33,014 nt of DNA, from IMG/VR virus record IMGVR_UViG_2713896896_000010, positions 1 to 33,014 of that record. The stretch is one strand, 5' to 3'. The notes under the pieces are model-generated. The model made no database searches and had not been told where the DNA came from. It saw only the letters and a program-made list of their open reading frames with translations. Below, one piece after another: positions 8,447 to 33,014 of the stretch. The stretch comes from a virus. Taxonomy: Duplodnaviria; Heunggongvirae; Uroviricota; Caudoviricetes. The position numbers were made by a program, and so were the translations under genes. The number at the start of each line of letters is the position of its first letter. Position 1 is the first letter of the stretch.

Positions 8447-8475
8447 AACAGTAAGTTACTACCGGAGACGCCATC

Positions 8476-8943: not shown

Positions 8944-8968
8944 TGGGACTCAGAAAAAGGAGACACTT

Positions 8969-9247: not shown

Positions 9248-9267
9248 TTTATCACCCCGCCGCTGCG

Positions 9268-10817: not shown

Positions 10818-10837
10818 TTTTTTGAAGGTCTGACACA

Positions 10838-11044
10838 GTGAGCATTATCAGATTTACAGAATGCGCAGGCTCAGGGAGCGCCAGCGCTGTCATGGTAGTC
10901 GCTGAACACATCACCCATTTTTACCGTCAGTGTGGTGCATATGGTGGCACGATCATTGAACTGGATACCGGGAAAAACGTGTATGTTCTTGAAAATCCCG
11001 ACGAAGTTAAATGCCTGATTGAACAGGCTCAGAAGGACACTTAA
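10838..11044 (+). CDS. Hypothetical small protein
   Basis: 68-aa ORF between the lysis and packaging genes. Confidence 0.45.
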   Translation: MSIIRFTECAGSGSASAVMVVAEHITHFYRQCGAYGGTIIELDTGKNVYVLENPDEVKCLIEQAQKDT

Positions 11045-11544: not shown

Positions 11545-11590
11545 CCATAGCGGCCCGGTTTTCCGGGCCGTCTGATATTCGGGATTTGTA

Positions 11591-12331: not shown

Positions 12332-12332
12332 C

Positions 12333-13973: not shown

Positions 13974-13976
13974 TTA

Positions 13977-15572: not shown

Positions 15573-16725
15573 CGATGTTGACCTGGGTTATGCGTACACC
15601 CTGAAACCGGAAGAAGCGATTAAGTATTTCGAAAGCAAGGGATACATTATCGGCTTCCGCTGGCACGATGTGAAGGATATTGCAAACGCCCGGGCGTTCA
15701 CGGTGGCGGGCGTGCTGAAACTGGACATTCTGAAGGATATCCGTGATGGCCTGACGGCGGCACTGGCTGACGGCGGGACGTTCAGGGAGTTTGCTGCACA
15801 ACTGGAGCCACTGCTGGAGAAAAAAGGCTGGCTGGGTAAAAAACTGATTGTGGACGAGGACACCGGCGAACTGCACGGCAGACAGCTGATGCCGCGCCGG
15901 TTGCGCACGATATTTGATACCAACATTCAGTCGTCATATAACGCCGGACGTTATCAGCAACAGATGGCGAACGTGGCTGACCGGCCTTATTTTGAGCGCG
16001 TGGCGGTGATGGACCTTCACACCCGCCCGAAACACGCCGCTCTGAACGGCTTTACCGCCCGGGCGGATGACCCGGTCTGGGAGTTTTTATACACCCCGGA
16101 CGGTTATCACTGCCGCTGCCGTATCCGGGCGCGTTCGGCGTCTGATGTGGAGAAATACGGCCTGACGGTGCAGAGCAGCGAGGGGCGACTGGTTGAGGTT
16201 GAGCAGGAATATGGTCAGCCGGGCCAGACCATCAGAACAATGGGACTGAAGATGCCGGACGGCTCCGTGTATACCGCCGACCCGGGCTTCGGATTTAATC
16301 CCGGTCGGGTGGCATGGCAGCCGGAACTGGAAAAATACGATTACCGCAGTGCCCGCCAGTATGTCACCGGCACTCTGACCGGGCCGGATTTTGCCCGGGG
16401 ACTGGCAAACGTCAGCGAACTGGATGCGCGCCAGCGATATCCGCTGGCCATCCGTTCACCGGAACAGGTCGCCGCCACGGGCGCTGCACGGCAGACGATA
16501 AACCTTACGGCTGACGTTATGAAGCGCCTCAGTGCAGCAGACACGCCCCCGGGTGTGTCTGACTATGTGCTGATGCAGCAGACCATCGAACGGGCGGAGC
16601 ATGTCACGCAGGACGGCAACGCGTGGCGGTATGCGTTACAGTCGGGCGACCGCTGGTCAGTGGCGACGGTTGAGGATGACGTGCTGACAGACTGGGTTAT
16701 GCAGGACACCCCGGAGGCATCATGA
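15559..16725 (+). CDS. Head morphogenesis protein (Mu F/gp30-like)
   Basis: 388 aa, following the portal as in Mu. Overlaps the portal stop. Confidence 0.7.
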   Translation: MPTADDVDLGYAYTLKPEEAIKYFESKGYIIGFRWHDVKDIANARAFTVAGVLKLDILKDIRDGLTAALADGGTFREFAAQLEPLLEKKGWLGKKLIVDEDTGELHGRQLMPRRLRTIFDTNIQSSYNAGRYQQQMANVADRPYFERVAVMDLHTRPKHAALNGFTARADDPVWEFLYTPDGYHCRCRIRARSASDVEKYGLTVQSSEGRLVEVEQEYGQPGQTIRTMGLKMPDGSVYTADPGFGFNPGRVAWQPELEKYDYRSARQYVTGTLTGPDFARGLANVSELDARQRYPLAIRSPEQVAATGAARQTINLTADVMKRLSAADTPPGVSDYVLMQQTIERAEHVTQDGNAWRYALQSGDRWSVATVEDDVLTDWVMQDTPEAS

Positions 16726-17273
16726 GCGGCGGTAAACTGGATATTAAGATTGATTTAAGCGCGTATAACACCACACTGGGGAAACTGATTCGTTCCGTGA
16801 AGGACCGGCGCGACCTGATGACGGCGCTTGCGGGTTCCATGCTGGATGCGGTTGAGACTAACTTTGAACAACAGGGCCGTCCGAAATGGATGGGCTGGAG
16901 TCCCTCCTATGCGAAGCGACGCGGCCCCGGGCAAATCCTTCAGAAGTCCGGGCGACTGGCTGCCAGTATCCGCTCTGCGGTTAACAATAACGAGGCCACG
17001 GTCGGGACAAACGTCCGTTATGCCCGTATCCACAACGAAGGCGGCGAAATCCGCCATCAGGCACGGACGCAGAACCTGTATTTTAAACAGTACAAAAACG
17101 GCAGCGTCAGCACCCGCTTTGTGAAAAAGCGCAACAGTAATTTTGTACAGAGCGCAACGGTCGGAGCGTATACGGTCAACATGCCCGCGCGCCCCTTCCT
17201 TCAGCTTGTGCAGGACGACATCGACGAGCTGGAGAACACCGCAAACCGCTATTTTGCGCGTGTGATTGACTGA
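16722..17273 (+). CDS. Virion morphogenesis protein (Mu G-like)
   Basis: 183 aa with an ATGA overlap to the upstream gene. Position matches Mu G. Confidence 0.6.
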   Translation: MSGGKLDIKIDLSAYNTTLGKLIRSVKDRRDLMTALAGSMLDAVETNFEQQGRPKWMGWSPSYAKRRGPGQILQKSGRLAASIRSAVNNNEATVGTNVRYARIHNEGGEIRHQARTQNLYFKQYKNGSVSTRFVKKRNSNFVQSATVGAYTVNMPARPFLQLVQDDIDELENTANRYFARVID

Positions 17274-17355
17274 ATGACCAGAAACGCGCTGTAATCGCCT
17301 GTGACAACATAAACGCCTCACGGATGAGGCATTACAGCACCGCACCCCATAAATG

Positions 17356-17380
17356 CCGTCAGAATCGTTTTTAAAAGGGT
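17356..17380. promoter_or_regulatory. AT-rich dyad CGTTTTTAAAA-GGG-TTTTAAAAACG
   Basis: 11-bp perfect inverted repeat around a GGG centre, read directly. Lies in the gap between G-like and the protease/scaffold gene and is followed by a T-rich tract. Confidence 0.4.
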
Positions 17381-17426
17381 TTTAAAAACGGTTTTATTTC
17401 CCATTTTATCCTTTCGCGTTATGGCA

Positions 17427-17453
17427 GGGTGCTGAACACCCTCCACAGTACCC
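17427..17453 (+). promoter_or_regulatory. Conserved motif copy B (GGGTGCTGAACACCCTCCACAGTACCC)
   Basis: 23 of 27 identical to copy A. The first 15 nt from the GTG are identical to copy C. Overlaps the annotated GTG start of the protease/scaffold ORF. Confidence 0.35.
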
Positions 17454-18598
17454 CGTGTTCCCCTTCCGTCATCATGCCGCGTATGAAGATGAACATTGCG
17501 GCATTAAGCCTCGAAATCACCAAAGCAACCCACAGCGAAATCCAGCTGTTTCCGGCAGGCGAGTTCAGCGCGGTGGATGGTCGCCCACACACCGATGAAG
17601 TCGAAAGCGGTAAATGGGTGCTGACTGCCGGACTGGCCGCGCAGCTTGTCGCACAGGTGGCAGCCCGTACCACGCCTTTTGTCATTGATTACGAACATCA
17701 GACGCTGCGCGCCGTAAACAACGGCAAGCCCGCCCCGGCGGCGGGCTGGTTCAGCCAGGTGGAATGGCGTGAAGGTGCGGGCCTGTATGCCACCGGCGTG
17801 GAGTGGACGGAGAACGCGGCGGCCATGATTGCCGCCGGTGAGTACAAATTTATTTCCCCTGTTTTTGCCTACAACAAGCGCGGCGAAGTGCTGGAGCTGT
17901 TACACGCTGCGCTGACCAATACCCCGGCGCTGGATGGTATGGACGCGGTCATGCTGGCTGCGGCCAGCCGTCTGGCGAGTCTGTCAACTGAAACGGAGAC
18001 CACAACGGTGGATGAAGAACTGTTAAACGAATTGCTGTCCAGCCTGCGCTGGATGCTTAACCTCCCTGTCACCTCAACGGCGGAAGATATTAAAAGCGAG
18101 CTTCAGAAAGTCATTGACCAGATTTCAAAAGGTCAGGGAACGGCGGCGGCTTCTGTCAGCCTGCTGGCCCTGCTGAATCAGAAAGATGAGCAAATCGCCA
18201 GCCTGTCAGCCAGTGCCTATGACCCGGCAAAACATATTTCCCTTGCCGCATATGAAGAACTTCAGGGGCGTTATGCCGCACTGGCGCAACAGTCCGGTGA
18301 GGCCGAAGCCGGGGCACTGATTCAGGCGGCGCTGTCTGACGGGCGACTGCTTCCGGTACAGGAAGACTGGGCGAAAGATTACGCCAGCCGCGACATCAAC
18401 GGTTTTAAAACATGGCTGGAAAAAGCGCCGAACATTGCCGCACTCAGCCAGACCCAGACCGGCGGCAAAGCCCCCAAAACGCCGTCGCCTGCCCCGGCAC
18501 AGATTAAAACCGGCGATGACGTTGATGTCGATATCGCCATTTGTTCAATGATGGGCGTCGATCCAGAGGATGTCGCCCGTTACGCAGGAGATGAGTAA
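17429..18598 (+). CDS. Head protease/scaffold protein (Mu I-like)
   Basis: 389 aa from the GTG at 17429. In-frame ATGs at 17474 and 17483 are alternative starts, so the start is uncertain. Confidence 0.7.
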   Translation: MLNTLHSTPCSPSVIMPRMKMNIAALSLEITKATHSEIQLFPAGEFSAVDGRPHTDEVESGKWVLTAGLAAQLVAQVAARTTPFVIDYEHQTLRAVNNGKPAPAAGWFSQVEWREGAGLYATGVEWTENAAAMIAAGEYKFISPVFAYNKRGEVLELLHAALTNTPALDGMDAVMLAAASRLASLSTETETTTVDEELLNELLSSLRWMLNLPVTSTAEDIKSELQKVIDQISKGQGTAAASVSLLALLNQKDEQIASLSASAYDPAKHISLAAYEELQGRYAALAQQSGEAEAGALIQAALSDGRLLPVQEDWAKDYASRDINGFKTWLEKAPNIAALSQTQTGGKAPKTPSPAPAQIKTGDDVDVDIAICSMMGVDPEDVARYAGDE

Positions 18599-18994
18599 AT
18601 GGATCGCAATACCCCCTATCGTGACGGCGAACTGAACCCGGTGCCGGTTGCCGCTGCGACCGAAATTTTTGGCGGTCATATGGTGGCCGTTAACGCATCC
18701 GGTTATGCCGTTCCGGCCAGTGCCACGGCCTCACAGATTACGCTGGGCGTGTCTGATGGCTGGGTGGATAACAGCAAGGGCAGCGATGGCGACGCCACCG
18801 TTCTGGTGCGTTGCGGCAAAGCCTTTCTGATGGCGAACAGCACCTCAGACCCGGTCACGCAATCGCAGGTCGGCAAGCTGTGCTACGTGGAAGACAGCGT
18901 GACCGTGGCAAAAACCGACAACAGCAGCGCCCGTCCTGTCGCCGGGAAAGTGATCGGCATCGGTGGCGATGGCGTCTGGGTTCATTTCAGTTAA
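18599..18994 (+). CDS. Hypothetical head-associated protein
   Basis: 131 aa, between the protease/scaffold and major capsid genes. TAAATG overlap with the upstream gene. Confidence 0.5.
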   Translation: MDRNTPYRDGELNPVPVAAATEIFGGHMVAVNASGYAVPASATASQITLGVSDGWVDNSKGSDGDATVLVRCGKAFLMANSTSDPVTQSQVGKLCYVEDSVTVAKTDNSSARPVAGKVIGIGGDGVWVHFS

Positions 18995-19004
18995 GGAGCG
19001 AAAC

Positions 19005-19913
19005 GTGTTAGTCAACGTTAAAAACGTCAAACAGATTTTTATCAATCTGAAGGCCACTTTCCAGAAAGCCTTCGACCAGTCACCAACTGACTGGCAGAAG
19101 GTGGCAATGGAAGTGCCATCAAACGGCAGGGAAAACGACTACAGCTGGTTAAATCGTTTCCCGAAAATGCGCGAGTGGATTGGTGACAAGGTCGTTAAAT
19201 CACTGGCGGCATTTAACTACACCATCCGTAACAAGGACTGGGAAGCCACGGTTGAAGTCGATCGTAACGACATCGAGGACGACCAGATTATGGGCTATGC
19301 CCTTCAGGCAAAAGGAGCCGGACAGTCGGCGGCAGAGCTACCGGCAGATATTGTGGCATCCCTTATCAGTAACGGTTTTACCAACCTCTGTTACGACGGA
19401 CAGCCGTTCTTTGATACCGACCACCTGGTCGCCGGTAAATCGGTGTCGAACAAGAGCACCAAAAAACTCAAAGTGGGGTCGCTTGCTGAAGCGAAAGCCT
19501 CCTACGGTGCTGCCCGTACTGCCATGCGCAGCCTGAAAGATGACGAAGGCGCATCCCTCAAAATTCGCCCGGATCTGCTGGTTGTGCCACCGGCGCTGGA
19601 AGATGACGCGAACTACCTGATGACCGCCGAGAAGTTCCCGGACGGCACGCCGAACCCATACCGCGGTACTGCCGACGTGCTGGTGATGCCGGAGCTGGCG
19701 TCGGATTCCGCATGGTTCCTGTTTGACACCACTAAACCGGTGAAACCGCTGATTTTCCAGCAGCGCAAGAAACCGGTCTTTGTGGAGCAGACGGACTACA
19801 GCAGCGACAACGTGTTCAAGCGTAAGAAATTCCTGTTTGGTGCCGAAGCGCGCTGTAACGGCGGTTACGGCTTCTGGCAGATGGCATTTGGTTCAGATGG
19901 TACGACGGAGTAA
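19005..19913 (+). CDS. Major capsid protein (Mu T-like)
   Basis: GTG at 19005 preceded by AAGGAG at 7 nt. This is an internal start of track ORF 18963..19913. Confidence 0.7.
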   Translation: MLVNVKNVKQIFINLKATFQKAFDQSPTDWQKVAMEVPSNGRENDYSWLNRFPKMREWIGDKVVKSLAAFNYTIRNKDWEATVEVDRNDIEDDQIMGYALQAKGAGQSAAELPADIVASLISNGFTNLCYDGQPFFDTDHLVAGKSVSNKSTKKLKVGSLAEAKASYGAARTAMRSLKDDEGASLKIRPDLLVVPPALEDDANYLMTAEKFPDGTPNPYRGTADVLVMPELASDSAWFLFDTTKPVKPLIFQQRKKPVFVEQTDYSSDNVFKRKKFLFGAEARCNGGYGFWQMAFGSDGTTE

Positions 19914-19916
19914 TGC

Positions 19917-20258
19917 ATGGAAAAAGTGATTGAAATTACCGCCCGCCGTGAGGGGTTTCGCCGCTGCGGTGTGGCACACAGCGCAACCACGAAGGCATGG
20001 CCTATGGATGCGTTCACCCCGGAACAGCTGGCGGTGCTGAAGGCTGACCCCATGCTGATTGTGGTGGAACGTGATAAAGCGTCCGGCCAGAACGACGCGG
20101 CCCGGGGTAATGAGCTGGCCGCACAGCTGGATGCCGAACGCCAGAAAGTCAGCGGCCTGACGGCACAACTGGAAGAAGAACGCCAGAAAGTCAGTGAACT
20201 GACCGCACAACTGAACGCCGCACAGAAAACACAAAAAGCTGACAAAAAGGAGAAGTAA
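19917..20258 (+). CDS. Hypothetical coiled-coil protein with an internal tandem repeat
   Basis: 113 aa. A 14-aa unit ERQKVSxLTAQLxx occurs twice, encoded by 42-bp tandem repeats at about 20136..20215. Confidence 0.5.
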   Translation: MEKVIEITARREGFRRCGVAHSATTKAWPMDAFTPEQLAVLKADPMLIVVERDKASGQNDAARGNELAAQLDAERQKVSGLTAQLEEERQKVSELTAQLNAAQKTQKADKKEK

Positions 20259-20261
20259 CCC

Positions 20262-20693
20262 ATGTCTTACGCCACACCGGAACAGTTCATCAGGGCGTTC
20301 AGTGAGCGCGAGGCGCGCACACTGACGGATGAAGACATGACGGGATTCATCGACGAAGAAAAACTGGCCTCCGCGCTTGCGCGTGCCAGTGCCCAGATTG
20401 ATGGCTATCTGGTGGGGCTTTACCGGACCCCGTGGCCTGACAGCCCGGGGATTCTGGTGGGTTACTGCTGCGATATCGCCCGCTATCACCTGGCGACCGA
20501 TTACCGTATCAGCTCAGAAGAAATTCAGATGCGCTACCGGGACGCCATCCGCTTTCTGGAGAAAGTCGCGGCAGGACAAATCAACCTCGGACGGGATACG
20601 TCCGGCAGCGTGATCCAGTCATCGTCACAGGTGCGTATCCGTTCCGGCTCCCGTCAGTTCGGGCGGGAGTCCACGCGGGGAGGTGCATTCTGA
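20262..20693 (+). CDS. Head-tail connector-like protein (Mu gp36/DUF1320-like)
   Basis: 143 aa. Position and size match Mu gp36. Memory-based. Confidence 0.55.
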   Translation: MSYATPEQFIRAFSEREARTLTDEDMTGFIDEEKLASALARASAQIDGYLVGLYRTPWPDSPGILVGYCCDIARYHLATDYRISSEEIQMRYRDAIRFLEKVAAGQINLGRDTSGSVIQSSSQVRIRSGSRQFGRESTRGGAF

Positions 20694-20746
20694 TTACTGA
20701 AATTGAACGGGCGCTGGTTGAGCGTCTGCGTTGTGGTCTGGGTGAA

Positions 20747-21328
20747 ATGGTGCGGGAAGTCCGCACCTATGCCGGTGAACTGGATGAAGATCCGGGCCGG
20801 ATTGTTCGCAGCCTTCCGGCAGCCTGGGTGACGTTCGGCGGCATCGTGAAAACCGAACGCTATTCCACGTCACGCCGGAAATACATTGCCACCGGACGCT
20901 TTGTGGTTGTGGTGGGTGATTACAACACCCGCAGCGAACAGAGCGCCAGACAGGGAGGCACGGTCCGGGATGAGGTCGGTACAAACCTGCTGGTTGAATC
21001 CGTCCGCCGCCTGCTGACTGGTCAGGATTTGGGGCTGGAGATTGATTATTTCGAACCCGGGCGGGTCAGGACGCTGTTTAACACCGGCGTGTCAGAGCGG
21101 GCAATGTCCGTGTTTGCCTGTGAGTTCGATACCCGCTGGGTGGAGCACGCACAGGAGAACGGCAAATGGCCGGAGCGCGGCGCAGAAGCGGACCGTCTCT
21201 TCAACCACTACCACGGCAGGCTGTCAGACCCTGACCCGGATTTACTGCGAATTGGTACGCAATACGGCGCAGATATCTGTGGTCTGGATGAATTAAGAGA
21301 GCAACAGCATGAACAAAATGAAGGTTAA
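20747..21328 (+). CDS. Mu gp37/DUF1834-like protein
   Basis: 193 aa, coordinates from the track. My manual base counting near 20746..20821 disagreed with the track by one base, which I attribute to my reading error; I defer to the track. Confidence 0.55.
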   Translation: MVREVRTYAGELDEDPGRIVRSLPAAWVTFGGIVKTERYSTSRRKYIATGRFVVVVGDYNTRSEQSARQGGTVRDEVGTNLLVESVRRLLTGQDLGLEIDYFEPGRVRTLFNTGVSERAMSVFACEFDTRWVEHAQENGKWPERGAEADRLFNHYHGRLSDPDPDLLRIGTQYGADICGLDELREQQHEQNEG

Positions 21329-21542
21329 GGCGGCTCCCGGGATGAAGTTCCCGATGGAGGATAACGCCCGAAAATACATCACCACGGAAGCGGTGACCGT
21401 TGAGAACACCGCTTATTACCGGCGCGCCGTTCAGGACGGTGACCTGATTCTGGTGGCTGAAGAGCCTGAAACGGCTGAACAGGACACCGGCCCGGAAAAA
21501 ACGAAGGCGAAGAAAGAGAAACAGGTGGGTTCCAATGAGTGA
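21309..21542 (+). CDS. Hypothetical small protein
   Basis: 77-aa ORF overlapping both neighbours, just upstream of the tail sheath gene. Confidence 0.45.
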   Translation: MNKMKVKAAPGMKFPMEDNARKYITTEAVTVENTAYYRRAVQDGDLILVAEEPETAEQDTGPEKTKAKKEKQVGSNE

Positions 21543-22956
21543 AATTCAGTTTGACACCATTTCGGGCAGTATCCGTAAGCCCGGTGTGCATTTTGAGTTT
21601 AATACCCGGCTGGCCGTTAACACGTTGCCGGGTAACGAACAGCGTGTTCTGGTGATTGGCCCGATGCTGCCTGATGGCACCGCCACACCCCTGAATGCGG
21701 TTTCCGTGTATTCCGAAGACGAAGCGGATTTGTATTTCGGGGCCGGTTCACTGGCTGCAGCAATGGCGCGCGCGGCCATTAACGCCAACAGCTATCTGCA
21801 ACTGGATGTTATCGGTATTGCAGACGGTGGTGCAGGAAAAGCGGCAACAGGCGCAGTTAAAGTCACCGGCACTGCAACCAGCAGCGGTACGCTGTCGGTA
21901 TGGATTGCTGGCGAGCAGATCGCCATTAATGTGGACGTCGGGGATGAACCGTCGAAAATCATTCCGGCACTGGTGACGGCAATGACGCAGACGCCATCGC
22001 TTCTGGTTACGGGGGAATACAAATCTGACACCTCTCAACTGACAGTGACCGCCCGGACCAAAGGTACCTGGGGGAATGATATCTCCCTGTCGGTATCCAC
22101 CACTGCAACCGGCCTTGTAGTGGCTACCACGCCGATGGCGAGCGGCGAAATGGACCCGGATATTCAGCCCGCACTGGATGCGGTCTTTGCTGCCGGTCAC
22201 AACATTCTGATTTGTCCGTTCAGTACCGCGCCAGCCCTTGCGGCCCTGAAGCAGCATCTGGAGAAAACCGGGAACGCGATGGAACAGCGCGGCGCGATTG
22301 GCTGTGCGGGCTGGACGGGCAGTCTCGGAAACGGGATCACCCTGGCAGCCGGTGTAAACAGCGGGCGCGTGTCCGTCCCCTGGTATCGCGGCTCCGTGAA
22401 GCTGCCAGCTGTGCTGGCTGCCATCTACGGCGCAGTGATGGCGAGCGAGGAAGACCCGGCACGTCCGCTGAACTCGCTGGCGCTGTCCGGGCTGGATGTG
22501 GTCGCCATGTCACAGCGTGAAAGCCGTAACGAGCAGGAAAACGCCCTGCATAACGGCCTGACACCGGTTGAGGTTGGCCCGGGTAATACGGTGCAGATTG
22601 TGCGTGCGGTCAGTACGTACACGGTTAACGCACAGGGCGTGACTGATGTCTCGTTACTGGATATCACGTCCATCAGAACGCTGGACTACACCCGCAAGGC
22701 GTGCCGTGAACGCATCAGCCTTCGCTTCCCGCGCGAAAAACTCAGCACCCGAACCATCGCAAAAGTGGAAAGCGAACTGTATGACGTGCTGATCAAGCTG
22801 GAGGAAGCGGAAATTCTGGAGAACGTGGAAGCGAACAAGGCAAAGCTGCGCGTTCAGCGAAACGGGAAAGATGCAAACCGTCTCGACTGCGCGGTTCCGG
22901 CGGATGTGGTTAACGGTCTGCATGTGTTTGCCGGTCGCATCGACATGATTTTGTAA
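21535..22956 (+). CDS. Tail sheath protein (Mu L-like)
   Basis: 473 aa, followed by the tube gene. Typical contractile-tail order. Confidence 0.8.
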   Translation: MSEIQFDTISGSIRKPGVHFEFNTRLAVNTLPGNEQRVLVIGPMLPDGTATPLNAVSVYSEDEADLYFGAGSLAAAMARAAINANSYLQLDVIGIADGGAGKAATGAVKVTGTATSSGTLSVWIAGEQIAINVDVGDEPSKIIPALVTAMTQTPSLLVTGEYKSDTSQLTVTARTKGTWGNDISLSVSTTATGLVVATTPMASGEMDPDIQPALDAVFAAGHNILICPFSTAPALAALKQHLEKTGNAMEQRGAIGCAGWTGSLGNGITLAAGVNSGRVSVPWYRGSVKLPAVLAAIYGAVMASEEDPARPLNSLALSGLDVVAMSQRESRNEQENALHNGLTPVEVGPGNTVQIVRAVSTYTVNAQGVTDVSLLDITSIRTLDYTRKACRERISLRFPREKLSTRTIAKVESELYDVLIKLEEAEILENVEANKAKLRVQRNGKDANRLDCAVPADVVNGLHVFAGRIDMIL

Positions 22957-22968
22957 GGAGCCTGATAA

Positions 22969-23343
22969 ATGTCTCTGCATGAATACATTGGCTCGATTGT
23001 GCTGGAGGTGGACAGCCAGGAAATCGAGATCACCGACCTTGATGTTCAGATCAACACTGGGCGCAAACTGGTCAAGACCATGAACAAAACCGGCAGGGCC
23101 AAAGGCTTTGCCCGGGGCATTGGCACCTACGAACTGTCCGTTTCGGCGGTGATCCCTGATACCAACGAGCCGGACTGGGAAAACCTTGAAGGTGTGAAAA
23201 TCTCGCTGTACCCGCTCAGTAAAAGCGGCAAACGCACCTCCTATCTGGACTGCTTCACAATCGAAGTGGGTGAAAAATACACCGTCGATAATGAAGCAAA
23301 AATTGATATCAAACTGGCTGCACTCAGGAAGGTGACAGGATGA
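22969..23343 (+). CDS. Tail tube protein (Mu M-like)
   Basis: 124 aa, directly downstream of the sheath gene. Confidence 0.7.
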   Translation: MSLHEYIGSIVLEVDSQEIEITDLDVQINTGRKLVKTMNKTGRAKGFARGIGTYELSVSAVIPDTNEPDWENLEGVKISLYPLSKSGKRTSYLDCFTIEVGEKYTVDNEAKIDIKLAALRKVTG

Positions 23344-23741
23344 CTTTGATTAATACACAGACCGGCGAACTGTCTGATGGCGTGGTGTTTAACGGCACCG
23401 TTCATAAAAGCTTTGAACTGCGTCTCCCGGTCATGCGTGATAACGGGCAGGCACTGGAAGAAACCGAAGAACGCTTTCAGACGGTGGATGGCTTCGCGGC
23501 GGATTATTACTACCGCTGTGCGGTGATGGCGGCAACGCTGGTCCGCCTGGGGGATATCCCGCAGGAAGAACTGACGGCGGAGCTGTTGCACGACAACATG
23601 ACGCTGGAAGATTTTAATGTTCTGATGGCAGCACGCGACATCCTGAAGGTAAAGCGGAACGGCGGGAATCCCGGCTCGCCGGACTCCGGTTCGCAGTCCT
23701 TATCCTCGGGCGCTACGGAATCACCGAAGAACAAATCATGA
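23340..23741 (+). CDS. Tail assembly chaperone (Mu gp41-like)
   Basis: 133 aa, between the tube and tape measure genes. The -1 frame stays open from 23618 to 23895. Confidence 0.6.
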   Translation: MTLINTQTGELSDGVVFNGTVHKSFELRLPVMRDNGQALEETEERFQTVDGFAADYYYRCAVMAATLVRLGDIPQEELTAELLHDNMTLEDFNVLMAARDILKVKRNGGNPGSPDSGSQSLSSGATESPKNKS

Positions 23742-23885
23742 CCATGAGCCGTCCCGAGCTGGACGGCTGGCTCGCCGCCGTTGACAGGCTGAACGGTGGC
23801 GGCTCAGGAAGAAAGGACACCTCACAGACCACCCGCCAGTCATTTAAATCCCTCAGAAAGAAACGCAGAAAAGGTAAGCAGAAAA

Positions 23886-26156
23886 ATGGCCGGTAATTTC
23901 AAAGTTGGCATGACCCTGACAGCGAAGGACGAAGCCTCGCAGGTTCTGGAAAAGGGACAAAAACAGGTTATCAAAGCCACCGAAGGTGTAACAAAGGCAA
24001 CACGGAAGGCAGGCGCAGAGCAGAAGCGTACCGAGCAGGAAAGCGTTAACAGCACGAAAAAGGCCGCAAAAGAGATACAGCGTGCCGCCCGTGCCCGGGA
24101 AACGCTCGGTATTCGTGCAGAACGCGAGATCCGGCGTGAAATTTATCTGACGGTCGCCAGCTATAACCGTCTGGCCCGTGCCGGTTTTGAATCTGCGCAG
24201 GAGCAGGAGCGCGCCATGCAGGCAACCCGGGAAAAAGCCCGGGCACTCAAGCGGGAACTGGATGGCGTTACTCAGGCACAGATGAAGATGGCGAAAACGC
24301 CTGTTATCCCCGAGCGGGGGCGTTTTGCACGTGCGGCTGCATTTGGCGGGAACGCCGTGACAATAGGCGGTGGTATCGCAGCAGGTGCTGCCATTATGGC
24401 GCAGCCGGTCAAAAAGCAGATGAGCTACGAACGCCAGCTGGCAATGATGGCCAATACCGCCTTCAGTGATGGTGGGCTGGAGGGGCGCAGGGCTGGTCTT
24501 GAGCAGATGAAAAGCAGTATCCGTAACGCGGTAACCTATGGTGGTGGCACGAAAGAGGATGCGGCTGAAACGCTGGATGCCCTGCTGAAAGACGGCATTT
24601 CATTTGAAACAGCCAGTAAGTGGCTGCCTGAACTGATGAAATACGCCACGGCTTCTGGTGCATCTGCAACAGACCTGGCCAACGTAATGGTCAAGGGTAA
24701 AAAGACCTTTGGATTCAGGGATGAAGATATTTCCACCGTTCTGAATATGGCGATTGCGGCGGGGAAAGAAGGCAGCTTTGAACTGAACGATATGGCGCAA
24801 TATTTATCGTCACAACTTGGGGCTGCTGCCAATGCCGGGATGAAAGGCAAGGATGATTTCGTCAAGATTCTGGCGCTGAATGAAGCCGCAGCGATTACAG
24901 CTGGTAACAGCAGCGAAGCCGGAAATAACGTATTTAACCTGCTGGCAAAACTGACCAGTAAGGATATTGAAACAGCAGCTGCGGGAATAAATTACAACGG
25001 TAAGGGCATCGACTTTGCAGGAACGTTGGTAGAAGCGCGCAAGAACGGGCTTGATCCGATAGACGCGCTGTCCAGCCTGATAGACAAAATCGTTGCCAGC
25101 GATAAACGCTATCAGGAGCTGCAAAAGAAACTGGCATCCGCCCGGGACAAAGGCGAGCAGACGGCTGTTTATGATTCGATGGTAAAACTCCTTGAAGGTT
25201 TTGGTGTCGGGAAACTGGTTGCAGACCAACAGGCGTTAAAGGCGTTGCTGGCTTATCGTAACAACCCGGAATACCGGAAAAAGGTTGAAGATGCGATTAA
25301 TCAGCAGCGCACCCTGCCGGAAGGTCAGCGCGCGGGTGATGTGGATTTCGAATTCACGTCAGGCACGAATGATTTTAAAACCGAACAGGCTAAAAACACG
25401 CTTGAATTTTCACAAATGGACAGCGTGAAAAAGCTGGCTGATGCGTCCGGTACTGTGGCTGATGCCATAAGCTGGGCGGGTGAAAAGTTCCCGGGACTGA
25501 CCACGGCAGTGGTGGGGGCCACGACCGCCATTGAAGCGATGACCGCAGCGGCTCTGACATGGGCCGGGATCAAAATCCTGACCGGGGGGAAACCCGGTGG
25601 CAAGGCCGGCGAGGTTGTCGGTGATGTAATTGAAAATACGGTCAAAAAAGGCAAAGGATTTAAATTCCCCGGCATTGCCGGTAGCCTGCTTTCTTTCGGT
25701 GGCTCCGTTACGGCACTGGCCACCGCAACCAGCCCGGAAGAAGACGCCGCCGTCGAAGGCAGCGAAGAACGCTGGAAACGCATCCGTGCCCGATACCCCC
25801 AGGAAATCATCGACGCCGCCCGCAAAAAATACCAGCCGTGGTGGCAGTTTGGGGAAGGCTATTCCACCGAAAACGAAGAGTGGTTGAGGCGCTGGGAGGA
25901 AGACAGGAAAAAAGCGGCAGCTGATGCCCTGCCATCACCAGAGCAGGTTAACAAATCCGCAGGAAACACAACGCCTGAACCGGTATCAACGCAACCCGGA
26001 CGCATCACCCAGCCGGAATACCTCACGCACTGGGGACCACCTGCCAGCCCCATTAATTTCACCACACAACTGGTGCTCGATGGTCAGGTCGTGGCGGAAG
26101 CGGTGAACAAATACAACCTTCAGGACGGTAACAGAGGCACGGGAGGAACTTACTGA
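23886..26156 (+). CDS. Tail tape measure protein
   Basis: Long, Ala/Gly-rich, helical ORF after the chaperone. ATG at 23886 preferred over the track start, which is a GTG at 23796. Confidence 0.75.
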   Translation: MAGNFKVGMTLTAKDEASQVLEKGQKQVIKATEGVTKATRKAGAEQKRTEQESVNSTKKAAKEIQRAARARETLGIRAEREIRREIYLTVASYNRLARAGFESAQEQERAMQATREKARALKRELDGVTQAQMKMAKTPVIPERGRFARAAAFGGNAVTIGGGIAAGAAIMAQPVKKQMSYERQLAMMANTAFSDGGLEGRRAGLEQMKSSIRNAVTYGGGTKEDAAETLDALLKDGISFETASKWLPELMKYATASGASATDLANVMVKGKKTFGFRDEDISTVLNMAIAAGKEGSFELNDMAQYLSSQLGAAANAGMKGKDDFVKILALNEAAAITAGNSSEAGNNVFNLLAKLTSKDIETAAAGINYNGKGIDFAGTLVEARKNGLDPIDALSSLIDKIVASDKRYQELQKKLASARDKGEQTAVYDSMVKLLEGFGVGKLVADQQALKALLAYRNNPEYRKKVEDAINQQRTLPEGQRAGDVDFEFTSGTNDFKTEQAKNTLEFSQMDSVKKLADASGTVADAISWAGEKFPGLTTAVVGATTAIEAMTAAALTWAGIKILTGGKPGGKAGEVVGDVIENTVKKGKGFKFPGIAGSLLSFGGSVTALATATSPEEDAAVEGSEERWKRIRARYPQEIIDAARKKYQPWWQFGEGYSTENEEWLRRWEEDRKKAAADALPSPEQVNKSAGNTTPEPVSTQPGRITQPEYLTHWGPPASPINFTTQLVLDGQVVAEAVNKYNLQDGNRGTGGTY

Positions 26157-27505
26157 TGGGCTGGGCTGAAAATCTGCAAAACGCTTCCTTTCGCGGCGTG
26201 CAGTTTGATGTGCTTAACACGGATGAACAAATCAGCCGCGACCATGCGGTCTATGAATACCCGTTTGTTGACGGGGCAGATTTGCACGACCTCGGACGCA
26301 AGGCGCGACCGTTCCGCATGACGGCGTTCCTGTGGGGGGAGTATTACGAATACAAACTCGAAAAGCTGACCGCCGCCCTGGACGAAGGCGGCGATGGTGA
26401 GCTGATTCACCCGATTTATGGCTCCGTACCGTCGGTGATTGTAACCGGCTACAGCATCCGCCATGACGCAGAAAGCCCGGACAGCTGCACTATTGACATG
26501 AGTTTTCTGGAGAACCGCACCGACAGTGCGCTGTTCAGCACCCCGTTACCGGAGTTGTTTGCACAGCAGCTGTTTGAAGAACTGGATAAGTTACTGGCAC
26601 AGTTAAGCGAGTTTTTTGAAGCTGTTACGGCCCCTTTAAAGACCATTAACAGCGTAATAAAAAAAATCCAGACAGTGCGCGCCACACTGGTGAATACCCT
26701 GCTGACGTTCAAAAGCGATTTTATCACCTCTGTCGATAATATGATGTCACTGGTCAGCGAGCCCGGAAAGTTTATCGGTGGACTGGCAGAGGTGCTGGAA
26801 ATCCACACGTCAGATGTCGGGCACGCGGTGCCGGTTCTGGCGCGTACTGATTCCGCCACCACGACCGGACTGACCGGAGAGGACAGCGTCGCCAGTTCTG
26901 CGACCGTGATGACCTGCTGGAATAAGGTGATGGCAGATATGGATGAACTGGTCGCGCTGCCGGTCGCACTGGTCAGCGGTGATAAAACGCCGTCTGTGGC
27001 ACTTCCGCCGGATGCTTCCGTGGAAGACGTGCAGGACGTGAAAGCGGCTTATGCGGTTCTGGCAGCTTCCGAACTGGCCAGCGTGGCAACGGCAGTACTG
27101 TCCGATGGAGCCCAGTCAGAACAGCTTATACCGGCGGATATCGGGCGACTGGTCGGGGATGTGCGCACCCGCTTACAGGCAGCCATCACGCTGTTCCGTG
27201 AACGCTATGAAGGCGAACGCGAACGGATAACTGAAACCGCATCACCGCTGGGACTGATGTACCCGGAAATCATTCAGAGCATAAAGAACGTGGCGGCATC
27301 CGTGCAGGATATCGGCCTGCTGGTGCTTTCACGCCGCCCACCGCTGACGCAGAAACAGGTGCAGGCGGACAGCTGTCTGCTGTTGCTGGCGTGGCAGTGG
27401 TACGGCGATTACAGCCGTGCGGCAGAGCTGCAACGCCTGAACCCGCAACTGCGTGACCCGAACAATATAACCGCCGGGATGGTGATTAATGCCTGGACAA
27501 AATAA
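26156..27505 (+). CDS. DNA circulation protein (Mu N/gp43-like)
   Basis: 449 aa in the Mu N position after the tape measure gene. Confidence 0.65.
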   Translation: MGWAENLQNASFRGVQFDVLNTDEQISRDHAVYEYPFVDGADLHDLGRKARPFRMTAFLWGEYYEYKLEKLTAALDEGGDGELIHPIYGSVPSVIVTGYSIRHDAESPDSCTIDMSFLENRTDSALFSTPLPELFAQQLFEELDKLLAQLSEFFEAVTAPLKTINSVIKKIQTVRATLVNTLLTFKSDFITSVDNMMSLVSEPGKFIGGLAEVLEIHTSDVGHAVPVLARTDSATTTGLTGEDSVASSATVMTCWNKVMADMDELVALPVALVSGDKTPSVALPPDASVEDVQDVKAAYAVLAASELASVATAVLSDGAQSEQLIPADIGRLVGDVRTRLQAAITLFRERYEGERERITETASPLGLMYPEIIQSIKNVAASVQDIGLLVLSRRPPLTQKQVQADSCLLLLAWQWYGDYSRAAELQRLNPQLRDPNNITAGMVINAWTK

Positions 27506-28700
27506 CGAAGACAAAATCAGCCTGGTCATTGCCGGAAGGTCGCATTCTGACTGGAGCAGTTATCGTATTGACAGCGATTTCCTGAAAGCCGCCGACGGCT
27601 GGCAGCTTCAGCTGGGGCTGCCTGAAAAGGTGTTCCCGGCGGATATCGTCCGGGGCGCGCCAGTCCGGTTGCAGGTGGGAGACGAAACGGTGCTCAGTGG
27701 TCGCGTGGACAGCGTGCGCCGCAGTGTATCCCGTCAGAGCTGCACGCTGACGCTGTCCGGGCGTGATGATGCCGCCATTCTGGTGGACTGTGCCGCACCG
27801 GTGTTCAGCGCCAACCAGCTGACACTGGACGAGGTCATCGACAGGATAGTCAGACCGCTGGGGATACAGCGCATCCGTATTCAGGCATCCGGTGTGTCAC
27901 GTAATGACAAGGTCGTTATAGAGCCGGGAATGCGTGCGTGGGATGCACTGGCTAAAGCTGCCGCCGGTCGCGGCTTATGGCCGTGGTTTGAGCCTGACGG
28001 GACGCTGGTTGTGGGTGGCCCTGACTACACCACCACGCCGGTGGATACGCTGATTCTGAAGCTGGACGGCACCGGGAACAACGTGATGGAGCTGGACGAC
28101 ACCCGGTCCATTAACGGCTGCTTCTCCGAACTGACTGTACTGGCCCAGAGCCACGCCCGCCGCGCAGACAGCAAAAAACAGGTGGCCACAGTGCCTCTGG
28201 ATATCTGGAACGAGGACGGCAGCGTGCGCACATTATCCGGGCGGGACGGTGGTAATACGGACAGTGGTCAGACAGGCATTCATAACATGAAAGCCGTGGC
28301 CACCGACCCCACCGTGGATTATTACCGCCCGCAGATTATTACCCAGGGCGACACCAGCAACATGGAACAGGTGAACTGGCGCGCCAAAAAAATGATGAGT
28401 GATGCCCGCCTGTCCGGGCTGGATATCGTCGCACTGGTTGCAGGTCATCGCACGGCGGACGGTGTCCTGTGGCAGCCCGGACAGCGTGTGCGGATTGTCA
28501 GCGAACCCCACGGCATTGATGCCATCTTTTTCCTGATGGGGCGTGAGTTCAGCGGAGGCCGCAACGGGCAGACAACCCGGCTCCGTTTTAAGGAGGACGG
28601 CGTGTGGATACCTGATGCCTTCCCGCGCGAGAAGAAACGCCATCACCGCAGGGGCAAAAAGAAAAAAGAGGTCGCCATTGTTAAGGTCTGGGAGAAATGA
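27489..28700 (+). CDS. Baseplate/tail protein (Mu P/gp44-like)
   Basis: 403 aa. Position and size match Mu P. Confidence 0.7.
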   Translation: MPGQNNEDKISLVIAGRSHSDWSSYRIDSDFLKAADGWQLQLGLPEKVFPADIVRGAPVRLQVGDETVLSGRVDSVRRSVSRQSCTLTLSGRDDAAILVDCAAPVFSANQLTLDEVIDRIVRPLGIQRIRIQASGVSRNDKVVIEPGMRAWDALAKAAAGRGLWPWFEPDGTLVVGGPDYTTTPVDTLILKLDGTGNNVMELDDTRSINGCFSELTVLAQSHARRADSKKQVATVPLDIWNEDGSVRTLSGRDGGNTDSGQTGIHNMKAVATDPTVDYYRPQIITQGDTSNMEQVNWRAKKMMSDARLSGLDIVALVAGHRTADGVLWQPGQRVRIVSEPHGIDAIFFLMGREFSGGRNGQTTRLRFKEDGVWIPDAFPREKKRHHRRGKKKKEVAIVKVWEK

Positions 28701-29350
28701 TGTGGGACAAAGTTAATCAGCGCGTACAGCAGGCACTGGCCGCCGTTCGTCAGGCATTCAGGGTGGTGACCGGTACGGTAGACAGTTCGACCAAAGTACA
28801 GTTGCTTCAGCTTAACGGGCTGGCCGGCGAACAGCTGGACGGTGCGGAGTATTTTCAGCATTACGGCCTCACCACATCCCCGCCGCCCGGCTCAATGGGT
28901 ATTGCCGTTCCGCTGAATGGTAATACCTCCCATACCGTCGTCGTGGCCACAGAGCACGGCGCATATCGCCTGACGGAACTGAAGCCCGGCGAGGTGGCCC
29001 TGTATACCGACGAAGGCGCAAAAATCGTACTGAAGCGCGGGCGGGTTATTGAGCATGAATGTGATGTTTATCGCGTGAAATGCAAATGCTATGAGGTTGA
29101 GGCAGAGGAGAACGCCGCATTCACGACACCGTTACTGACGGCCAGCGATAAGCTGACGGTGGAAGGTAAAATCACCGGCAACGGTGGCATGGCCATCCGC
29201 GGAGGCAAGGAATACGCCGCCACTTTTGAAGGCAACATCAACCATGTGGGTGGTGTGCTTACCTCCGTTGACGTCACCATTAATGGCGTTAAAATCGGAA
29301 CACACAAACACGATACCCCTCACGGCATATCCGGCCTGCCGCATAATTAA
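28697..29350 (+). CDS. Baseplate spike/assembly protein (gpV-like, Mu gp45-like)
   Basis: 217 aa. N-terminal region typical of gpV-type spike proteins as I recall them. Confidence 0.65.
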   Translation: MMWDKVNQRVQQALAAVRQAFRVVTGTVDSSTKVQLLQLNGLAGEQLDGAEYFQHYGLTTSPPPGSMGIAVPLNGNTSHTVVVATEHGAYRLTELKPGEVALYTDEGAKIVLKRGRVIEHECDVYRVKCKCYEVEAEENAAFTTPLLTASDKLTVEGKITGNGGMAIRGGKEYAATFEGNINHVGGVLTSVDVTINGVKIGTHKHDTPHGISGLPHN

Positions 29351-29375
29351 GTGCTGAACACCCTCACCTGATTCT
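29349..29375 (+). promoter_or_regulatory. Conserved motif copy C (core GTGCTGAACACCCTC)
   Basis: 15-nt exact match to copy B. Lies in the 53-bp gap between the spike gene and the next baseplate gene. Confidence 0.3.
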
Positions 29376-29403
29376 GACCTGTCCATGCTGCCAGACTGGC
29401 GGC

Positions 29404-29754
29404 ATGGACCAGACGATTTCACCTGCAACCGGCGACTACGAACGCCGCCGGATTTACACACTCCATAACGCGGTTTATCTGCGACTGGCGACACCGCTTG
29501 GCAGTTACTGGGCGGATGCGTCGCTGGGGTCACGCCTGCACGAGCTGAAGCGGGAAAAAGACGTTCCCCGTGTTCACAGACTGGCGGCGCAGTATGCCAG
29601 CCAGGCACTTCAGCCACTGCTCGATGACGGGCGGGCAAAAGCCATTACCGTTGACACAAAACCGGGCCAGCGCGGCTGGCTGTTGCTGTTAATCACCGTC
29701 ACGGATAACGCGGGCACACCGCAGACGTTTGAACACCCTGTGAGGATTATGTAA
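29404..29754 (+). CDS. Baseplate protein (Mu gp46-like, gp25/W-like)
   Basis: 116 aa. Size and position fit the gp25/W-type baseplate wedge protein. Confidence 0.55.
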   Translation: MDQTISPATGDYERRRIYTLHNAVYLRLATPLGSYWADASLGSRLHELKREKDVPRVHRLAAQYASQALQPLLDDGRAKAITVDTKPGQRGWLLLLITVTDNAGTPQTFEHPVRIM

Positions 29755-30833
29755 TGCCGTTTCCTGTTCCGGGCGTTGCTGAAAACACAGAACGCCAGCT
29801 ACGTGATATCGCTAACGCCCTGCCGGGTGAAACCATCGACACCGGCGCAGACAGTGATTACCGCATTCGTGCAAATGCAGTATCCGGCGTGGCTGACGGG
29901 CTTTATATGCATCAGGGCTGGATACTCCGACAGGTGTTTCCTGACACGGCAGCCCCTGAATATCTGGAGCTGCACTGTCGCACGCGCAATGTTTTTCGTA
30001 AAAAAGCAACGGCCTCATCCGGTCCGGCGGTGATTACCGGCACACCAGGTAAGACACTGCCAGCTGGTGCAGAAATTCGTGGTGAAGGTGTCAGTGTGAC
30101 CACCACAGCAGACTGCATCGTCGGTGATGAAGGCAACGCAGAGGTGACGGTAAAAAGTACCACCACAGGAGCACGGACGAACGCATCCGCAACGCAGACG
30201 GCGACACTGGTCAGCCCGCCGGAAGGCATCAACAGCACGGCGACGATTAAATTCCTGACCGGTGGAACGGACAACGAGAGCGACGCTGATCTGCTGGTGC
30301 GTTATCTGGATATTCTGCGCAGGCCTCCTGCTGGCGGTAACAAATATGATTACAAACGCTGGGCGCTGGAAGTTGATGGTGTTACCTCTGCGTACGTAGA
30401 GCCGTTACGTCGTGGCCCCGGCACGGTTGATGTGGTTATCACTTCTGCAAATGATTTACCGTCACAGGAGCTGATTAACGCGGTTATGGCCCATATCAAT
30501 GATGTCCGCCCGGTAACGGCGAAGGATACAATGGTACTGGCACCAACGAAAAAAAACGTTGACTTTGTTGTCAGGATAAAAACCAGTGGCCTTACTGTTG
30601 AACAGATAAAACCACAGATAACTGAAGTTATCACGGATTTTATGAACCGACTGGAGCCGGGGCAGGAATTAATTATTTCACAACTGGAAACTCAGATTTC
30701 ATTAATTTCTGGCGTCAGTGATCGGCGGGTTATTATGCCGTCAGATAATGTAAAAGCAGTTGTCAATGAATCCACATGGGAGTGGCTGCGTCCGGGGAGT
30801 ATTGATATCCAGCCATTTCCCCGGGAGAGTTAA
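29754..30833 (+). CDS. Baseplate J-like protein (Mu gp47-like)
   Basis: 359 aa in the baseplate module. The C-terminal third is visibly AT-richer by eye. Confidence 0.75.
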   Translation: MPFPVPGVAENTERQLRDIANALPGETIDTGADSDYRIRANAVSGVADGLYMHQGWILRQVFPDTAAPEYLELHCRTRNVFRKKATASSGPAVITGTPGKTLPAGAEIRGEGVSVTTTADCIVGDEGNAEVTVKSTTTGARTNASATQTATLVSPPEGINSTATIKFLTGGTDNESDADLLVRYLDILRRPPAGGNKYDYKRWALEVDGVTSAYVEPLRRGPGTVDVVITSANDLPSQELINAVMAHINDVRPVTAKDTMVLAPTKKNVDFVVRIKTSGLTVEQIKPQITEVITDFMNRLEPGQELIISQLETQISLISGVSDRRVIMPSDNVKAVVNESTWEWLRPGSIDIQPFPRES

Positions 30834-30836
30834 TAC

Positions 30837-31409
30837 ATGAATACGGTTGATTTATTTCGTGCCATGTTACCGCCGGTCAGCTATGACCCGAACGGGAAAT
30901 ATATTTCAGCAGAGCTGAACGCAGAAGCAGCCATTATGGATGAAGTAAAAGCGTCAGCTGCACGAGTGCTTGCATCTGTCACACCATTTTATGCATCCAT
31001 GACGCTGTCTGACTGGGAACGAGTATATGGAGTAATACCCCGCGACGGTGCCACACAGCAGGAACGCCGAGAAAATATTCTTATAAAGATGGCTGCAACT
31101 GGTGGGTTATCCATCCCTTATTTTAAACAACTTGCAGCCAGCCTCGGATACACCATAACAATTACTGAACTTCATCCATTCAGAACGGGGGTAAACCGAT
31201 GTGGTGATCGCCTCTATATAACAGATGCCCGCTGGATTTGGCAGGTTAATGTCACAGGAAGCAGAACGCCAGCTTATAGATTCAGAACCGGAGTATCTGC
31301 AACCGGGGAACCGTTACTTTCCTTTGGTGCTCCTGTTCTGGAAGAAACATTTAAAGATCTTAAACCCGCTTTTACTTATTGCTATTTCACATATAAGGAG
31401 AAGCAGTAA
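30837..31409 (+). CDS. Tail protein, DUF2313/YmfQ-like (Mu gp48-like)
   Basis: 190 aa, between the J-like and tail-fibre genes, as in Mu and e14. Confidence 0.65.
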
Positions 31410-31723
31410 TGCAAAACCTGATGCCCCAGATAAATACACCAGACAAATTGTTCCATGATGGTGACCCAACTCAGGGGATAGAAGGAACCATCGTGACAGC
31501 TGATTATATGAATAATCAGCAGGGAGCAACCCGTGATTTGCAGCAGGAACTCCTTAATGTTCTAAGTAGTGCGCATATTCAACCTGATCCAAAAAAAACG
31601 GATCAACTACTTACTGCACTTTGTGCGCTACTGTTAAGCCGTAAGAATCCGTTTGGCGACATCAAATCAGATGGCACGGTGAAAACGGCTCTCGAAAGTA
31701 CCGGATATGAACAGCTTTGGTAA
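31409..31723 (+). CDS. Tail fibre, N-terminal constant part
   Basis: 104 aa. The pattern ...[25 protein letters not shown] resembles conserved tail-fibre N-terminal domains. Ends in a stop 17 nt after the next ORF begins. Confidence 0.55.
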
Positions 31724-32006
31724 CTCATTGACCGCCAATGGATACCAGAAATTACCTGGGGGGATGATTATTCAATGGGGGAATTTTTCTGTCTCACCAA
31801 CCGGAGGAAGTGTTGGAACAGTTGATATAACATTACCTGTAGCTTTCCCAGCGGCTTGTCGTTCGGTAAATGCTCTTATTTCAACTAATGATCCTTCTGC
31901 CCGTTCTGTGGGCTTTGATATTGGAAGTACCAACAGAACTAAAATCAGATTTACTTACACTTCTGCTACAATAAATTCAATTTACTGGATGGCTGTAGGG
32001 TATTAA
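31707..32006 (+). CDS. Tail fibre, C-terminal variable (receptor-binding) part in a different frame
   Basis: 99 aa. [15 protein letters not shown] looks like the start of a tail-fibre C-terminal domain. No obvious Shine-Dalgarno before its ATG. Confidence 0.5.
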
Positions 32007-32008
32007 CT

Positions 32009-32440
32009 ATGGAAAAGACATATTATTTTAATCCCTCTGATTCGGGGTTTTATATTTCACCAGATAGCCAAACCATTCCTGAGAACGCTACGAAAATAAA
32101 CTTTACTATTTATTCTGAGTTCGCAGGAGTTGCATGGCCTGATGGTAAAATACTTGGTTCAGATAAAAATGGTTTTCCAATATGGCAGGATGCGCCACCA
32201 CTTACCAGCGAAGAATTAATCACAATCGCTGAATCAAATAAACAGCGATTAGTTAATCAGGCCAACGAATACATGAACAGTAAGCAATGGCCCGGTAAAG
32301 CCGCTATTGGCCGTCTGAAAGGCGAGGAACTGGCGCAATATAATCTGTGGCTGGATTATCTGGACGCACTGGAACTGATTGATACCTCCAGTGATCCAGA
32401 TATTGAATGGCCTACGCCTCCGGCAGTTCAGGCCAGATGA
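32009..32440 (+). CDS. Tail fibre assembly protein (Tfa)
   Basis: 143 aa. C-terminal LWLDYLDALELIDTSSDPDIEWPTPP is typical of Tfa chaperones. Confidence 0.7.
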   Translation: MEKTYYFNPSDSGFYISPDSQTIPENATKINFTIYSEFAGVAWPDGKILGSDKNGFPIWQDAPPLTSEELITIAESNKQRLVNQANEYMNSKQWPGKAAIGRLKGEELAQYNLWLDYLDALELIDTSSDPDIEWPTPPAVQAR

Positions 32441-33014
32441 CATCCGGCGCGGTGCTGGTATCTGTTGCCGTCACCGCGTCAATGTAATCCAGCACAGCGT
32501 TAAGTCTGGTTGTTTCTGCCTGCGTCAGTTTACGTCCGGCCTGCAATTTCAGTTGAATCAGACTGGTGGAAGCCATTGCAGTATCAATCAGCGACTGGCG
32601 CTGTACTTCTGCTGCATCTACTGCGGCGCTGTGCTGTGCCTCGGTATCCGTCACCCATTTCTCACCATCCCATTTATCGTATGACGTTAACGGAGCGAGA
32701 GTGGTTGTATTTTCAGGATAATCTCCCGGTACTGTAATTTCTTTTGCTTCTCCTGTTTCAGTGTTATAGACCGTTTCACCGCGATGGTCTGGCACGTACT
32801 CCCATGAGTTTAAATCTGCTGAACGGCAGATAGCATAACCAGCTTTATGTGTGCCAGGTGCATCTAAACAGGAATACGCCGGAATACCAACACCTACAGC
32901 AAGAAATTCGGTTGATGCAGAAATATATTCCCTTGTCTCACTGTTATAGTTGTAAACGATAATGTTTCCTTCCTGTACGGCAATAAGCTCATTGTTTAAT
33001 ATCGCGTTATTCAT
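32412..33014 (-). CDS. Alternative tail fibre assembly protein (Tfa'), convergent
   Basis: 200 aa on the minus strand. C-terminal LNAVLDYIDAVTATDTSTAPDVIWPELP parallels the + strand Tfa. Its ATG is the last three bases of the window, so anything upstream is unseen. Confidence 0.7.
   Translation of the reverse strand: MNNAILNNELIAVQEGNIIVYNYNSETREYISASTEFLAVGVGIPAYSCLDAPGTHKAGYAICRSADLNSWEYVPDHRGETVYNTETGEAKEITVPGDYPENTTTLAPLTSYDKWDGEKWVTDTEAQHSAAVDAAEVQRQSLIDTAMASTSLIQLKLQAGRKLTQAETTRLNAVLDYIDAVTATDTSTAPDVIWPELPEA

Follow-up and report, generated by a model that had tools for sequence, protein, structure and literature searches.

The tail-fibre gene of the prophage analysed here is split between two reading frames in the window (the whole 33,014-nucleotide stretch under study), and this split is very probably an artefact of draft short-read assembly. 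It exists in the letters of the window and not demonstrably in the organism, because base 31697, at which the two frames lose register, is an N in the source scaffold BBVE01000014.1. On present evidence, the split gene is not a real feature. The underlying locus belongs to the known Gin/Pin/Cin family and consists of e14-like cassettes on a Mu-like backbone, forming a standard host-range switch; the real locus is most likely the ordinary Gin/Pin-type switch of a Mu-like prophage. The finding carries little biological weight and its interest is methodological only. Conversion of an N to a base makes a scaffold join resemble a frameshift, a deletion or an insertion, and invertible segments, which systematically break short-read assemblies, are hot spots for such joins. 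Anomalies in this and similar windows need to be compared with the source record before they are interpreted.

The split fibre gene and its source scaffold

The Mu-like prophage in the window harbors a MuA-like transposase ORF (280..2322) with matches to Mu-transpos_C and HTH_Tnp_Mu_1, a MuB-like ATPase (2341..3234) and baseplate genes of the Mu gp44-gp48 type, the latter assigned from Pfam matches of identical products in relatives. Next to the gp48-like gene, the fibre module follows in the order constant part, gp53-like variable part, chaperone and second, inverted chaperone [Table 1]. The exact 190-aa gp48-type product is found in at least 24 contigs and matches Pfam PF10076 (Phage_Mu_Gp48), and the variable part matches PF21882 (Gp53-like_C, E = 1.8e-18). 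The position of the 143-aa chaperone gene equals that in the e14-type loci L001 and L002, while the 200-aa assembly gene pairs with an alternative, collar-type variable part lying just past the window end. Two variable C-termini are accordingly encoded in opposite orientations, with the gp53-type Sv and its tfa on the plus strand (31698..32440), tfa' on the minus strand (32412..33014) and the collar-type Sv' following in the tail of the scaffold.

Table 1 Features of the tail-fibre module in the window
Feature	Position	Strand	Remark
Mu gp48-type baseplate/tail protein gene, 190 aa	30837..31409	+	directly upstream of the fibre gene
Constant, baseplate-proximal part of the tail-fibre gene	31409..31696	+	real sequence up to the scaffold join
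Placeholder base	31697	.	N in BBVE01000014.1, A in the window; contig join
Variable C-terminal fibre part, gp53-like receptor-binding domain	31698..32006	+	first ~50 nt missing
Tail-fibre assembly (chaperone) gene, 143 aa, pairing with the gp53-type variable part	32009..32440	+	PF02413 Caudo_TAP, E = 3e-28
Second tail-fibre assembly gene, 200 aa, inverted	32412..33014	-	PF02413 Caudo_TAP, E = 1.4e-31

The initial annotation had described two ORFs in different frames that fuse when 37 nt are taken out between them, and both observations were reproduced in the window letters: a constant ORF of 104 aa (31409..31723) is followed in another frame by a variable ORF of 99 aa (31707..32006), and removal of 31706..31742 in silico joins the two in frame. 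Both frames are open over 31683..31723, and the junction reads ...GGCTCTCGAAAGTACCGGATATG.... The start of the 99-aa 'ORF' at 31707 is an internal methionine of the variable part.

Alignment of window positions 22837..33014 with BBVE01000014.1 (L028; assembly GCA_001514555.1, Escherichia albertii 20H38) spanned 10,178 nt without a gap, the sole mismatch being an A at 31697 of the window facing an N at position 8861 of L028. This is the only N in the 10.4 kb of the L028 locus. It is placed exactly at the junction, ...GGCTCTCGAA-N-GTACCGGATATG..., and its position is where homology to all other relatives breaks (31697/31698), such that the junction coincides with an unresolved base of a scaffold-level record. 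BBVE01000001-92 are listed as the '>500 bp scaffolds' of a 41x draft of E. albertii 20H38 (Table S1 of Ooka et al. 2015, PMC4700944), assembled from MiSeq reads with Platanus 1.1.4 (methods of PMC4700944). The record annotates this same 104-aa product, the codon containing the N being translated as X, and it is for this reason that the exact 104-aa sequence is not on record; the exact product was absent from the gene index. The scaffold itself stops 235 nt past the window, still within the same invertible module, and these last 235 nt match the collar-type variable gene of L024, a complete chromosome, with 100% identity.

The window is devoid of any N although its source scaffold has one at the equivalent of 31697. 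Ns were evidently turned into A when the window was prepared, and further joins could be hidden in positions 1..22836, the comparison with the record having covered 22837..33014. Because the single N became a normal base in the window, the gap is invisible from the sequence alone. The window ends at 33014, on the start codon of the inverted chaperone gene, and the scaffold continues for its remaining 235 nt, which suggests that gene boundaries, rather than a contig end, determined where the window was cut.

We propose that the left boundary of the invertible tail-fibre segment is a contig join written as one N, the N standing for a gap of under-estimated length rather than for an ambiguous base call, and that the presence in the culture of both orientations, or of further cassette copies, may have broken the assembly graph. 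In strain 20H38, the fibre gene would be intact and switched by a Pin/Gin-type serine invertase. This enzyme would flip a segment of ~1.8 kb between the site in the fibre gene and the site beside the invertase gene, thereby fusing the constant N-terminus to either the gp53-like or the collar-type receptor-binding C-terminus, each with its own chaperone. The junction resembles short-read scaffold-gap artefacts in that the break lies at the boundary of a repeat present in two orientations, an N marks the join, downstream calls are frameshifted and homologues are partial; it differs from usual scaffold gaps in that the N is single and became an ordinary base in the window. Some points speak against an assembly artefact. 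An isolated N may also denote an ambiguous base call. The dropping of precisely these 54 nt (see below) by Platanus is not accounted for by the exact inverted repeat, which is only ~15-20 nt long and whose limits do not match the contig ends (…CTCGAA and GTACCGG…). Finally, the window might derive from another, unindexed assembly of a sister strain truly having an A at 31697, a possibility made less likely by the gene index, in which the exact 104-aa product does not occur.

Missing sequence and the crossover site

Comparison with related loci indicated that the window is short of 53 nt rather than long by 37. All relatives carry these 53 nt between ...GGCTCTCGAAA and GTACCGGATATG...; they have 54 nt (AACCTTGGTTTGGGAGAAGCGGCAAAAAGGAATGTGGGGACAGGAGAAAATCAG) where the window has one base, 31697, and the collapse of 54 nt to one base, a net loss of 53 nt, throws the two halves of the gene into different frames. 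In the alignment to L001, L002 and L003, the 53 nt absent from the window fall between GCTCTCGAAA and GTACCGGATATG, and the 37 nt taken for an insertion correspond to normal coding sequence of intact fibres. The missing 53 nt comprise the right two-thirds of a 26-bp Gin/Pin-type crossover site together with the first 16-17 codons of the variable part. Downstream of the break, many E. coli genomes have intact e14-type fibre genes whose variable part matches window positions 31698..31780 with 100% identity.

Among 5,426 complete E. coli genomes, six cover the junction, each with exactly 53 nt more than the window, and none carries it uninterrupted as in the window; the exact junction likewise had no match in IMG/VR viral contigs or in JGI metagenome contigs. 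In every other locus compared that contains GTACCGGATATGAAC, the missing stretch lies directly ahead of it. The sequence ...TTGGTTTGGGAGAAGCGGCAAA(A/G)AGGAATGTGGGGACAGGAGAAAATCAG directly precedes it in L001, L002, L017, L020, L021, L022, L024 and L027, and the L023 contig begins partway through the missing stretch, before GTACCGGATATGAAC. When the N was filled with 54 nt, made up of the AACC of the Sc-side half-site and the 50 nt preceding GTACCGG in L027, a 651-nt in-frame gene encoding a 216-aa fibre was obtained, in which the junction is modelled as ...GGCTCTCGAAAACCTTGGTTTGGGAGAAGCGGCAAAAAGGAATGTGGGGACAGGAGAAAATCAGGTACCGGATATG...; with an intact site, the junction would read ...CTCGAAAACCTTGGTTTGGGAGAAGCGGCAAA....

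The placement of the junction at the constant/variable boundary of a Gin/Pin-type invertible module, and of the anomaly where a crossover site is to be expected, was borne out by the relatives, which carry CTCTCGAAAACCTTGGTTTGGGAGAA exactly there. The site is found at the homologous position in L015, L024 and L027, which are 99.9-100% identical to the window upstream, as well as in the more distant L018 and L019 and in the e14-type L001; in L015, L024 and L027 the constant part continues through it in frame. A search for TTCTCNNAAACCNNGGTTTNNGAGAA allowing up to five mismatches returned no site on either strand of the window, where all that is left before the N is CTCTCGAA (31689..31696), the last 8 nt of the constant part, with which the left half-site begins. 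The scaffold gap would account for the absence of the crossover site from the window. L024 and L027 contain a second site at 10669-10694, along with a 188-aa Resolvase+HTH_7 protein.

In all proteins sharing the constant N-terminus (P0001-P0030, 84-98% identity), the reading frame continues across the junction into one of several variable C-termini, and most of these homologues are 'partial', their contigs ending at the junction. The initial annotation had considered that intact homologous phages might encode the same two separate ORFs; the opposite was found, all homologues being fused. Had the N not come to light, these fused homologues would have pointed to a mutation.

Alternative readings of the junction

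The N could be an ambiguous base and the loss of 53 bp real in 20H38, in which case most of the left site and the start of the variable part would be lost, the invertible segment locked and the frameshifted fibre gene a pseudogene in a decaying prophage. The letters do fit a clean loss of 53 nt relative to all relatives, and fibre modules decay in this lineage, as illustrated by truncated remnants of the invertase in L018 and L019, an IS1 insertion in L026 and, in L025, a broken product of 121 aa. We nevertheless consider a real deletion unlikely: the only N in 10.4 kb falls on the junction, the record is scaffold-level output of a short-read assembler, the scaffold itself ends in the same module, and the junction recurs in none of the other collections searched (IMG/VR, the JGI metagenome contigs and the 5,426 E. 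coli genomes). Nor do the ends of the putative deletion display microhomology, and the left end lies 3 nt from the central dinucleotide cut by the invertase. A microhomology-mediated deletion was rejected upon inspection, since the ends share no bases and a GAAAA...GAAAA slip would remove 48 nt, not 53. The frameshifted pseudogene of the initial annotation likewise found no evidence, in that homologues read through the junction and the break sits on the N. It is a distinctly improbable proposition that the 53-bp loss is real and arose through a mis-repaired invertase break that deleted the site with its flank, froze the host-range switch and inactivated the fibre; if true, it would provide a natural case of an invertase destroying its own substrate. 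It would be a stretch to suppose, further, that the fibre of such a strain is still made by a +1 slip at CUU_UGG_UAA.

We regard as very improbable that the junction is the scar of aberrant invertase action at the crossover, produced either by recombination with a pseudo-site in the variable part or by mis-repair of a double-strand break. That the missing stretch includes the cleavage point of the crossover site is in its favor, but the product of such an event should retain the left half-site in full as far as the central TT (CTCTCGAAAACC-TT), of which the window has only CTCTCGAA(A). Moreover, the sequence to the right of the junction is a poor match to the site consensus, with no site of five or fewer mismatches on either window strand, and the break falls on the one N of a draft scaffold. 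The biological recombination scar raised in the initial annotation is not upheld on that last ground.

There is an exceedingly small chance that the fibre is made from two frames, whether by +1 ribosomal frameshifting within 31683..31723 (e.g. at CTT_TGG_TAA) or as two polypeptides that assemble. Both frames are indeed open over this interval and a slip at CUU_U would enter the variable frame; yet every homologue is a single fused ORF, so that neither the two-frame layout nor the slippery site is conserved. The arrangement is private to one scaffold and hinges on the N base, and one sequence cannot support the claim of a conserved stimulatory element.

The GGATA direct repeat reported to flank the 37 nt is present in the window, at 31703-31707 and 31740-31744, but it carries no weight as the signature of an insertion: at least one 5-mer repeat at a frame-restoring spacing arose in 54% of shuffles of the same 111 nt (mean of 1.0 per shuffle against one observed), and both copies are ordinary coding sequence in intact homologues. 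Despite the restored frame and the repeat on both flanks, the notion that a 37-nt insertion with GGATA duplication split a continuous fibre gene has next to no credibility, since intact fused fibre genes contain the 37 nt and both GGATA copies with 100% identity, 5-mer repeats of this kind are expected by chance, and the in-silico fusion product lacks the LENLGLGE... stretch found in all homologues.

The invertible module in related prophages

Five E. albertii loci (L015, L024, L027, L029 and L031) match the window at 99.92-100% identity as far as base 31697, and the divergence sets in at precisely this point. Over 22837..31697, L027 is 100% and L024 99.93% identical to the window, and L015 is 99.93% identical over 27489..31697. 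L024 and L027 harbor an intact site as well as the 188-aa protein, a Resolvase+HTH_7 serine invertase, and their fibre is a 247-aa fusion ending in a collar-type C-terminus. In both loci, window positions 31698..33014 lie reversed (10632..9316) with 99.85-99.92% identity, and the variable part is 99.8-99.9% identical to their inverted cassette and to the cassette of L020. Thus, the inverted orientation that the initial annotation had proposed to look for in assemblies was seen: both orientations occur between near-identical flanks, the window segment being flipped relative to L024 and L027, whereas the upstream region (22837..31697) is in forward orientation in both at 99.93-100% identity. In the phage collection, no close relative of the baseplate and constant region was found, no sequenced phage showing similarity at the DNA level over 27000..31720 except for the junction-proximal ~100 nt, and a protein search of genome contigs returned only distant e14-type loci.

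The module is most readily compared with the P-segment/Pin system of the E. coli prophage e14 (stfP/stfE, tfaP/tfaE, pinE), with which it shares the gp53-like part, both chaperones and the site at ~92% DNA identity or better; the window sequence beyond the break, from 31698 on, matches the P-segment at ~92%. The order is the same in the e14 P-segment, namely constant part, site, Sv, tfa, inverted tfa', inverted Sv', site and invertase. Next to pinE, the variable sequence of the window is the C-terminus of a fused 215-aa fibre in L001, while L002 carries the alternative 260-aa fusion, the two loci representing the two orientations. Unlike in e14, the constant N-terminus (first ~65 aa) and the whole baseplate of the window come from a Mu-like transposable prophage, and the left site is not represented in the window, owing to the scaffold gap. 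The module also resembles the G-segment/Gin system of phage Mu (S and U versus S' and U') and the C-segment/Cin system of P1, in which the fibre C-terminus and its chaperone are swapped by a serine invertase acting on a site within the gene. This swap of C-terminus and chaperone is the established mechanism of Gin and Cin. The MuA- and MuB-like genes and the gp45-gp48 baseplate are further likenesses to Mu; in contrast to Mu and P1, the fibre is short (216-247 aa) and the variable cassettes are e14-like.

Several related loci displayed variations of their own. In L027 (10324-11801, equivalent to L021:4143-5620), an extra collar-type cassette of 172 aa with the leader MLLDSSVFEVKNVGLGE lies between the gp53-type cassette and the invertase, such that this near-identical E. 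albertii prophage has three variable cassettes and probably three sites, the third site falling just outside the five-mismatch threshold. The arrangement is reminiscent of Min of p15B, a multiple-inversion system. A cassette consisting of Sv, tfa, tfa', Sv' and the invertase, 99.85% identical to window positions 31698..33014, was observed in L020 (7900-10424), L022 and L023. In L020, it sits in a P2-like prophage remnant on another E. albertii chromosome (CP043262.1), with no constant fibre part upstream and with the left half-site replaced (GCTGTTCTTGGTTTGGGAGAA); the cassette evidently moves between phage types.

Two E. coli members of the same Mu-like lineage, L018 (10000-10300) and L019 (10070-10300), have kept both crossover sites, and their invertase gene is a remnant of ~31 codons (MFIGYVRASTNDQDTDLQRNALNCAGYELIF*) located before the phage right end and host genes. 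Inversion in these prophages would depend on the invertase of another prophage acting in trans. The fibre module is damaged in two other copies of the Mu-like prophage, in L025 (8573-11698), which lies on a 200-kb Tra-bearing plasmid (CP043265.1) and has a fibre call of only 121 aa, and in L026 (8573-12187), where the IS1 element is inserted between the fibre gene and the chaperone gene. Finally, an imperfect inverted repeat of 18 nt (32350-32367 and 32476-32493, 83% complementary) is present at the 3' overlap of the convergent chaperone genes of the window. The pair also occurs in L001 and L019, and it is most likely a consequence of C-terminal homology between the two chaperones rather than a recombination site.
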